DNA of 62,919 nt, filler included, from Dugesia japonica (GCA_001938525.1; 6 parts of 6 records of this genome joined end to end with filler, not necessarily neighbours in it); one strand, 5' to 3'. Shown: positions 201-2,579, counted from the first letter of the whole stretch. Numbers and translations: made by a program. Notes: generated from the letters alone by a model not told the origin.

Positions 201-830
201 ATTACCCATATTATGAGAATTTCGTCTTTAACGCTACGATTTTTATCCATACTACTGATCATATTGACACTATTATCTTAGTTAATGTGTATAAACAGTT
301 AGATAATAATTATCGGTAACCCTATTTTTCATCAACCCTATTCGAATTATTACTCCACTCCATTATTACATGCTCATGGTTCCGATGACACAATAAATCA
401 GGTTACACGTCTTTGTTCCGTACCCGCCAGCATTTTCCAGCAAGGAGTGTCGTCGTTAATAATCATCCCTCGTTTCGTGATTCAGGAGAACTAACCCATG
501 AATTCAATAACTATGTCTAATGGTTTTCCTTCAGCTATGCTAGCAAGGTTACGAAATGCCCTGAAGCTGATAAAAAAAGCAACGCCAGACCGCTCGTTTG
601 AGGCAGCTAATAGCCCATCTTTTGACTCGTGGTAAAATTGAACATCCTGATGAAACCGATCTCCAATGTTTCACAGAGATGTTCCTTCTAGACAATAAAG
701 TAGACTTGCATGAAGAATGATAAGTAGAATTACATGCTTGTTAGCTTATGCAGAATAAATCTTACCCCTTATTGTCTTGTTTTTGGACTAATCTTGTATG
801 CATCATTTTAAAATTGTTTAATTTTTATAG

Positions 831-1259
831 ATGGATTATAAATGGGAAGTGAGTCTTGATATTAATTTCGGTCACACCGTATTTAAGAAATATAAAAACC
901 CGTATGATCGCGACGCCGGAGTTCTGGTAGACCGCTCCAACATCCCTGCTGAACAGATAATAGAAGAAAGGCGATGGGATGCTACCGAGAGGAGCGCATA
1001 CTACAGCTGGTGTGGGCCTAGAAGAGACAGAGTCGTATTCCCTCCAGCTCCACTTTCCTTTGAGAGGTTTTCAGAGGTACCACAAGTAGAGCGCATGTGG
1101 CACGATGGGCCTTCATTAATAGGCATCACTACAAGCCACCTACCTTCAACCACCCAATTGACTTCATTCGTCCAGAACTATTTATGGAGCACCCGTAACG
1201 AAGTGGTGAGTGGCAATAACGAAAACGCTGAGGAGGAAATTTCAGACGTTTCCATGTAG
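831..1259 (+). CDS. Cassette ORF A1, 142 aa hypothetical protein
   Basis: ATG directly after acceptor-like TTTTTTATAG; AATAAA at 1272; motif NPYDRDAGVLVDRSNIP matches NPYQRDGCILLDRQNLP near 53664. Confidence 0.65.
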   Translation: MDYKWEVSLDINFGHTVFKKYKNPYDRDAGVLVDRSNIPAEQIIEERRWDATERSAYYSWCGPRRDRVVFPPAPLSFERFSEVPQVERMWHDGPSLIGITTSHLPSTTQLTSFVQNYLWSTRNEVVSGNNENAEEEISDVSM

Positions 1260-1421
1260 CGTGATTAATTAAATAAAGATTTAGTTAGGAATTCACGTTT
1301 ATTTGTCTCTTTATTATTTTGTTGCTTACTATCCCATTCTGTCTCCATTTATTTAAACCATAGATTTTCTAAATAGTAATCATAAATAGATTTCTTTATT
1401 CTTATGGTATTTATGTTACAG

Positions 1422-1790
1422 TGCATTCGTCATTAAACAGATCGTTGGCCCCCAATAAACAGATGAGAGACTCCAGTGAGGACATCGAAATGTCTTGGGG
1501 AGTTATATCGGTTGGCCATTCGCCGTTTCGAGGCCAAGGTAGCTAATGCAAATGCAAAGGTGAAACGATATGGGAATAAGTGTATTAACGTACGCAAGGA
1601 AATGGAAGCTGCGCACGGTCAAGAAAGAGTATGGAAGTCGCAGTTGGAATTGTTCGCCGAAATCATCCAGTCCAGCCATGATCGTGAGAATAAACTGGTT
1701 AGCGATATATTGTACCTTAAAGAGAAATCCTACCTCGAACCCCTCATGATTGATAAGAGTACACATACCAAATCCGTGCTACGTGACTAA
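1422..1790 (+). pseudogene. Cassette ORF A2, helical/coiled-coil-like hypothetical protein (2 early stops)
   Basis: Frame starts right after TTATGTTACAG; open 1476-1790; AATAAA at 1808; homologous to 53996-54329. Confidence 0.65.
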
Positions 1791-1950
1791 ACTTTTCTAT
1801 ACTTGTAAATAAATGATTAGTAGTGTGATCTTTACCTCACTGTGTCTTACCTTAATTTAAATAGGAGAATTTGTTGTGAATAATATCAAATATTTATCTC
1901 TTGTCATTAATGCTTAATTATCTAGTGCTACGTATTACATTTCCAAACAG

Positions 1951-2295
1951 TTTACAACGGTGTCATCGGATAATGCGCCGTCTTATCATCGAAAGGCATC
2001 TAAAACGTAAAACAGATTAAAAAGCCTGGCTCAGAGAGACCAGATGATAAAGAAATTAGACTTAATTATAAAAAAGCAAGCTAATTTGGCTACGCAAACT
2101 AAAGCTCTTGAGGATGAGTCTAAATTATTGTTACAACAGAAAATTGACTTCCTAAAACAATATATTGCGGATCTCTCCCACCGAATTGGTAACCTCACCT
2201 GAATGCAGTGGAATGATAACGATTATATAGCATCGTTCAATTTTTTAACGGATTCGGCTCAGTGGTTATACCCGGGTGCATTGGATCTTATGTAA
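1951..2295 (+). pseudogene. Cassette ORF A3, coiled-coil-like hypothetical protein (stops at 2008 and 2200)
   Basis: Frame starts right after TTCCAAACAG; FLKQYIADL...QWNDNDYIASFNF; AATAAA at 2307; homologous to 54410-54619. Confidence 0.65.
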
Positions 2296-2579
2296 TTATT
2301 AGATAAAATAAAGTTTCCAGTGTTTGACTCATTCTAGCATCTAATAAATTCGGAATAATCGAAAAGATAGTGAATCCAAATCCAAAGGCGTGTAGGTGTG
2401 CATTTCCCATGAGGTGAGAGGTCAACCGCTATATGCTGAATACTTAACATAGGGGCGTTAAGTTGAATTCTTGAAAGGGTTTTCTGAGGGCTGTTTTTCC
2501 CCAGCCACGTTTTCTTCACCCAACTCAGGTGGAACTTCAACATATATATATATACACATACGTATAATAATAATAACAA

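Follow-up and report, generated by a model that had tools for sequence, protein, structure and literature searches.

How could a row of small genes be expressed from a repeat when several of them carry no ATG where their frames open? This question is raised by the left end of a 62,919-nucleotide window (filler included) of the Dugesia japonica assembly GCA_001938525.1, by which we mean the whole stretch of DNA analysed. The original prediction described an operon-like array of four units there, each opening in frame directly after a pyrimidine-rich AG and closing with a stop codon and AATAAA. The window, at ~26% GC, is interrupted by scaffold gaps and contains transposon debris together with a few host exons; more than 70% A/T has been reported for planarian DNA (PMC11410931). 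The array is a GC-richer island bounded by a degenerate (ATT)n tract at 1-204, which could be target site or internal tandem repeat, and by a (TA)n flank at 2543-2554.

Several other features share the window. A C2H2 zinc-finger ORF at 9501-10025 (+) and a PDZ-like exon at 51090-51434 (+) are likely host genes, and an intronless Lys/Asn-rich ORF of 736 aa at 5424-7634 (-), for which a word search returned no homologue, has a degenerate kinase domain, to which Pkinase matches below the cut-off (E 3.8e-6). There are hAT/Spin-doc-type transposase remnants at 32683-34308 (-), with a weak zf-C2H2_12 match (E 0.04), and MITE-like nested inverted repeats at 46219-46556 and 49084-49199. The 100-N gaps at 9967-10072, 19654-19753, 30859-30958, 43442-43549 and 52321-52428, with the TTAATTAATTAA linker mid-gap, are assembly filler. 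Major and minor capsid-like remnants at 61135-61488 and 62040-62576 (-), without a Pfam match, are presumably of the Polinton/adintovirus type. By eye, ~50 of 93 residues of the 61135-61488 remnant agree with the translated Polinton-1 probe of Schmidtea mediterranea given in Table S1 of PMC8532177. Taken with the A/T content, this agreement makes a planarian host probable.

Positions 230-2542 are a decayed copy (copy A) of a multi-copy repeat, which is probably already present in repeat libraries. The genomic copies to which the original prediction looked for confirmation do exist: 2621 contigs of one DNA run (X1) map to 230-2620, a depth that does not translate into a copy number, and a search of the remaining window sequence at the translated level, with the element as query, revealed a diverged, collinear second copy (copy B, ~52470-54876, +). 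That many contigs, together with two diverged copies in 63 kb, is the pattern of a high-copy dispersed repeat. Most contigs are 85-95% alike, with 162 at 99% identity or above, 417 at 95-99%, 1069 at 90-95% and 973 below 90%. The deepest contig bins are 630-709, 1670-1749 and 2470-2549, and summed depth rises at 550-709.

Units 2, 3 and 4 each have a homologue in copy B, with their order preserved (z 9.5, 17.9 and 16.2 against shuffles), and frame-shifted comparisons of the two copies reached shuffle level only. The units of copy B start at AG 52594 (B0), 53196 (B1, followed by TG), 53598 (B2), 53995 (B3, followed by TG) and 54409 (B4), with AATAAA at 53127, 53522 and 54642 and none past the stop of B3; 132 Ns fill 52863-52994. 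Family sequence at 231-520 (+) in copy A is collinear with copy B (231-511 with 52756-53127); its DNA alignment scores of 44 and 41 were each reached by none of 200 shuffles, and no protein-level signal was seen in it (z ≤2.0 against shuffles). A further candidate start, 53039, was dropped because it lies within this A-collinear sequence. B0 is one additional unit at the left of copy B, and B0 and B1 represent extra or different cassettes. B1 occupies the slot that unit 1 occupies in copy A and is unrelated to it, so that a slot common to both copies holds different genes.

Within copy A, unit 1 (517-759, +) has a CTAAT branch-like motif at 517, an acceptor AG at 533-534, an ATG at 537, a frame at 574-720 that ends in a stop at 720 after a frame change near an A-run at ~570, and AATAAA at 754. 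This unit had been placed between AG 485 and AATAAA 694, and we moved both borders: the frame that opens after 485 meets a stop at codon 3 and 534 fits better, and since 694 lies inside the 574-720 frame, it is not the poly(A) border of unit 1. Unit 2 (787-1277, +), with an acceptor AG at 829-830, an ATG at +1, an ORF of 142 aa at 831-1259 and AATAAA at 1272, is the only open unit in copy A. Unit 3 (1400-1813, +) has an acceptor AG at 1420-1421 followed by TG and a coiled-coil-like main frame that, after a frame change near a G-run at ~1500, reaches a stop at 1790 ahead of AATAAA at 1808. Unit 4 (1900-2312, +), also with a coiled-coil-like frame, has an acceptor AG at 1924-1925 followed by TG, a stop at 2295 and AATAAA at 2307, and is interrupted by stops at 2008-2010 and 2200-2202; at position 2202, all six contigs counted carry a letter that differs from copy A. 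Comparisons of all 15 unit pairs were non-significant, indicating that the units are not tandem paralogues.

These borders retain part of the original description. The four AATAAA signals at 694, 1272, 1808 and 2307 are all present. With a cut at 62% pyrimidine, the AGs at 485, 830 and 1421 are indeed pyrimidine-rich, whereas that at 1950 exists but falls below the cut. It had been given as the start of unit 4, but the AG nearest downstream of the spacer is 1925; we prefer 1925, a post hoc choice that implies a frame change absent with 1950. The spacers, described as U-rich and ~130-160 nt long, are T-skewed (T fraction 0.42-0.49) at a GC of 0.23-0.25 near the window background, but run for 76-149 nt from signal to next AG. 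In the two copies, AATAAA lies within ~45 nt past the stop in six of the seven units tested, where the chance from shuffles is 2-7% per unit and 21% for one. Opening in frame held for unit 2, but units 3 and 4 have two phase-0 stops each.

Comparison of the two copies indicates that the units are protein-coding and under constraint. Over 152 protein-aligned codon pairs, pN was 0.37 and pS 0.87 (saturated). Since protein alignment favours conserved residues, we ran a DNA-guided control, in which identity by codon position was 91/164, 114/163 and 69/163 (55/70/42%, p 3.3e-6). The dN/dS check that accompanied the original prediction came out on the side of coding, on an evidence base of only two decayed copies and one external protein. 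A chance pattern in AT-rich repeat debris would draw on the AATAAA density of the window (4 per kb) and on there being one intact unit among four; it is largely refuted by the codon-position signal (p 3e-6), the collinear second copy and the external homologue (E 1.8e-17), and we give it next to no credence.

That homologue, P0003, derives from a 512-nt ENA contig, is 53% identical to unit 2 and was the sole relevant match among 1.84 billion representatives; its residue 1 aligns with the first codon (Met) of unit 2. A second HMMER match to unit 2, the fern repeat protein P0004 (E 6e-4), was judged to be chance. A PDB search with unit 2 gave no match, and an AlphaFold2 model from the two-row alignment was unusable (pLDDT 44.3, pTM 0.19). 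Pfam returned nothing above cut-off for the units (60-142 aa), with sub-threshold matches mostly to coiled coils, among them a weak BRE1 coiled-coil match for unit 3. Word-index protein searches with units 2 and 3 found nothing, the ESM Atlas gave no usable match to unit 2 or B1, viral and prokaryote sequence collections yielded no relative, Rfam had no match over the window, and no unit showed similarity to F-type envelopes. Most likely, the cassettes encode putative factors that help the element or modulate the host, of which two would be coiled-coil proteins.

We compared the reading frames at the unit starts. Phase-0 starts directly after the AG had been expected, but the longest open frame was in phase 1 at 534 (32 codons vs 2 in phase 0), 1421 (40 vs 4), 1925 (30 vs 15), 53196 (53 vs 0) and 53995 (22 vs 0). 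AG|TG with an open phase-1 frame occurs at 1421, 1925, 53196 and 53995, at four of nine unit starts; this is the env-type arrangement of an acceptor followed by the remainder of an ATG in an open frame. Three further starts have an in-frame ATG of their own (830 at +1, 534 at +3 and 54409 at +19), and neither rule fits 53598 (TA) or 52594 (GT) as they stand. Elsewhere in the window, TG follows a pyrimidine-rich YAG in 18 of 387 cases (4.7%). The enrichment of TG at the unit starts gave binomial p values of 0.0008 (4/10), 0.005 with homologues counted once (3/8) and 0.05 without the post hoc 1925 (2/8), with denominators that all include the now doubtful 53039. A non-coding leader ending in A would explain seven of the nine starts, a coding leader ending in phase 1 six, and phase 0 three (four with 1950).

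The reading that we favour, tentatively, is that a giant Gypsy-type element expresses the cassettes as alternative last exons on a shared leader, whose final A would create A|TG. A promoter and non-coding leader would lie upstream of the array, beyond the window, and each message would join the leader to a single acceptor. The choice of acceptor would define the terminal exon and license the adjacent poly(A) signal. The leader's final A and the TG of the cassette would then form an AUG at the junction, with other cassettes bringing their own ATG. If use of the poly(A) signals is coupled to use of the acceptors, unspliced genomic RNA would read through. The leader and its last base, the splicing, the polyadenylation and the LTR identity are all predicted from the grammar of the sequence. 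Unit 3 could also be translated without A|TG from a downstream in-frame ATG, which lies ~70 nt into the exon and is kept in both copies (M-S/T-W); the first 77 nt of the unit have a weak codon pattern, with identities by position of 18/25, 14/26 and 13/25.

A polycistron resolved by spliced-leader (SL) trans-splicing would dispense with a donor, and we found no donor-like motif common to the two termini. SL trans-splicing has been described in S. mediterranea and S. polychroa, the same-strand units are less than 300 bp apart as the flatworm operon criterion specifies, and the 69-149 nt between signal and acceptor and the conserved downstream ATG of unit 3 also suit this model. The short intercistronic spacing, with an acceptor after a poly(A) signal, resembles flatworm SL operons, but those consist of host genes, mostly two per operon. 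The flatworm leader ends in AUG (PMC12582326), and the original prediction had this AUG serve as in-frame initiator. It fails in that role at 53196 and 53995, where phase 0 begins with an immediate TGA; at 1421, phase 0 closes at codon 5. The leader AUG, out of frame here, would have to be bypassed in favour of own or downstream ATGs or of a GUG overlapping it, but the first ATG of B1 is out of frame and the enrichment of TG would go without an account. We consider trans-splicing doubtful.

Alternatively, the leader joined to the last exons could itself be short and coding, end in phase 1 and supply a common N-terminal peptide, as for the env of ZAM and Beagle. An env joined by splicing to a short upstream peptide has been described (bioRxiv 2023.08.03.551782), and phase 1 fits the starts at 534, 1421, 1925, 53196, 53598 and 53995. 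The starts at 830, 54409 and 52594 open in phase 0, however, there would be no reason for TG in three non-homologous genes, and P0003 begins at the codon that matches the first codon of the exon. This arrangement appears unlikely. We find it very unlikely that each cassette is a transcription unit of its own, with [CT]AGT as an initiator-like motif in place of an acceptor and translation from a downstream ATG: YAGT is present at 1421, 1925, 53196, 53598 and 53995 and each unit has its own poly(A) signal, but the AGs lie behind pyrimidine tracts with branch-like motifs, they are the exact points at which phase-1 frames open for 22-53 codons and, again, B1 offers no in-frame first ATG.

The right end of the array bears on the carrier. 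As originally noted, it ends in ...CAACA against (TA)n, at 2542. The last part of copy A (2350-2542, +) is a non-coding, LTR-end-like sequence that is conserved in copy B (54690-54876, +), where ...AACA is followed by an ATTAAT-type repeat. The two termini are identical at 126 of 177 aligned bases, with a score of 104.5 against a shuffle maximum of 18.5. The terminus is more conserved (71%) than third codon positions (38-42%), which makes a cis-acting role for this end likely. Both termini keep a 5-bp hairpin with one compensatory pair (2489-2506 and 54822-54837), 35-55 nt from the end. There is no third copy of the terminus within the window. A hammerhead core was considered and rejected by eye, the stem having no GAAA after it, and two metagenome matches of the terminal 20-mer were isolated stretches of 20-21 nt, put down to chance.

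Such an ...AACA end is the usual end of a Gypsy LTR. With respect to TG...CA termini, both copies have the 3' ...AACA, and they have no common 5' end. Their left ends are non-homologous, with (ATT)n also left of copy B (52425-52470) at a point not homologous to that in copy A. For a target-site check, the left boundaries are undefined and the flanks are microsatellites. A common 3' end, left ends without homology and AT microsatellites to either side, as well as the paired hairpin, could instead reflect a 5'-truncating non-LTR or Penelope-like carrier with a conserved 3' stem-loop. The cassettes could also run antisense to an LTR with TGTT as its start on the minus strand, a placement that would spare the genomic RNA internal poly(A) signals. 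Either way the cassette grammar would be real and the carrier other than a sense-strand LTR. The shared ...AACA end speaks against such carriers, folding of the termini was no better than that of shuffles (z -0.25 and -1.17), and no reverse transcriptase or endonuclease frame occurs in the 2.4 kb of each copy that the window contains. We rate these carriers as rather improbable.

Judged from the features of its sequence, the array likely belongs to a giant planarian Gypsy-type retrotransposon, as its 3' or LTR part. The multiple copies, the coding constraint and the conserved terminus support the original proposal of an accessory-gene cluster of a retroelement, but neither pol nor a 5' LTR end nor a target-site duplication could be linked to it. 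At the left, copy A reaches the edge of the window and copy B a scaffold gap, so that 2.4 kb of each is seen; within the window, no leader, donor, paired LTR, polypurine tract (PPT), target-site duplication or pol was linked to either copy. Gag and pol remnants elsewhere in the window showed no link to the array. One decayed element at 35600-42000 (+) has CCHC knuckles of a gag-like kind (zf-CCHC in Pfam, E 5.5e-6). The ~4.5 kb behind them are A-rich ORF remnants in which no pol is recognisable and nothing matches Pfam above cut-off; this element, too, had no detectable link to the cassettes. Gypsy-type protease and reverse transcriptase fragments lie at 13478-16105 (+; RVP E 0.008, RVT_1 E 5.9e-16). 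To the right of the terminus, a short frame at 2721-2920 (+), without Pfam support and probably part of another element, is one that we take to resemble the C-terminal region of a Gypsy integrase.

We also looked for RNA reads on the element in three raw runs labelled as the same species. X10 gave none, X11 gave 20 and X14 gave two; all are partial and less than 95% alike, none spans a joint or shows a poly(A) end, and they are too few to test splicing. They suggest faint transcription of related subfamilies.

Elements with parts of this organisation are known. In the adenovirus major late unit and in Drosophila mod(mdg4) and lola, a single leader or constant 5' part serves many alternative terminal exons and poly(A) sites; none of these is a retroelement. 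To our knowledge, none has a split start codon. The errantivirus env message ends at the LTR. In gypsy env, splicing builds the start codon, to which the donor side contributes AT and the acceptor side G (PMC2585583), and a splice-made start codon is also described in the springer subclade (bioRxiv 2023.08.03.551782). Errantiviral env and the array thus share an AUG of a retroelement gene that is predicted to arise only by splicing, but env is one gene with AT|G, whereas here A|TG would serve several unrelated genes that have their own poly(A) signals and no similarity to env.

Among planarian elements, the Burro/GYPSM1 giant Gypsy-like LTR elements of S. mediterranea have thousands of copies, accessory ORFs and tandem repeats (PMC6431247). 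By description, they resemble the present repeat in high copy number, an AT-rich host, accessory ORFs, internal tandem repeats and an LTR-like end. Their ORFs, mostly in one polyprotein, encode BIR, BCL2, MATH, ankyrin and env-like domains, none of which was found here, and the pertinent section of PMC6431247 makes no mention of acceptor-ORF-poly(A) cassettes in an array.

The S. mediterranea transposon GLT2 is represented by a probe, of which Table S1 of PMC8532177 provides the first 400 of 485 nt as used here. Read by eye on its reverse strand, it has a stop, an ~80-nt AT-rich spacer and AG|TG, after which phase 1 stays open for 78 codons that have a coiled-coil character and no ATG before codon 32; phase 0 meets a stop at codon 15, and phase 2 is also open for ~70 codons. 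The likeness to the array, in grammar only, thus comprises the stop, the spacer, AG|TG and the long coiled-coil-like phase-1 frame without an early ATG. Unlike the array, its spacer has no canonical AATAAA, and one GLT2 primer had no match in the window with up to three mismatches. GLT2 is transcribed in smedwi-2(RNAi) animals, and in the parts of PMC8532177 considered it is treated only as a PIWI target, with no structure given.

Splice-made starts and accessory genes are thus already known in retroelements. An array of unrelated, swappable terminal-exon cassettes with a split start codon was not found in the literature searched; beyond that literature, these ORFs may be described in the primary Burro paper with its extended data, in Repbase or in supplements (the PDF of PMC8532177, bioRxiv). 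We put forward, as a possibility held with some reserve, that giant planarian retroelements carry swappable accessory genes as alternative last exons, for all of which one shared leader supplies the initial letter of the start codon, that this start-codon lock keeps the cassettes silent on the genomic RNA, and that subfamilies swap cassettes in fixed slots.

If true, each protein would be translatable only from its own correctly spliced message. The design would stand between those of a complex retrovirus and the adenovirus late unit, with one leader as the switch for many unrelated genes that each have their own 3' end. RNA from PIWI-knockdown planarians, in which such elements are derepressed (PMC8532177), is direct test material. 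The start-codon lock would also predict dozens of orphan small proteins that gene finders have missed for want of a genomic ATG, and it would explain how giant planarian elements may express their cargo without shortening the genomic RNA.
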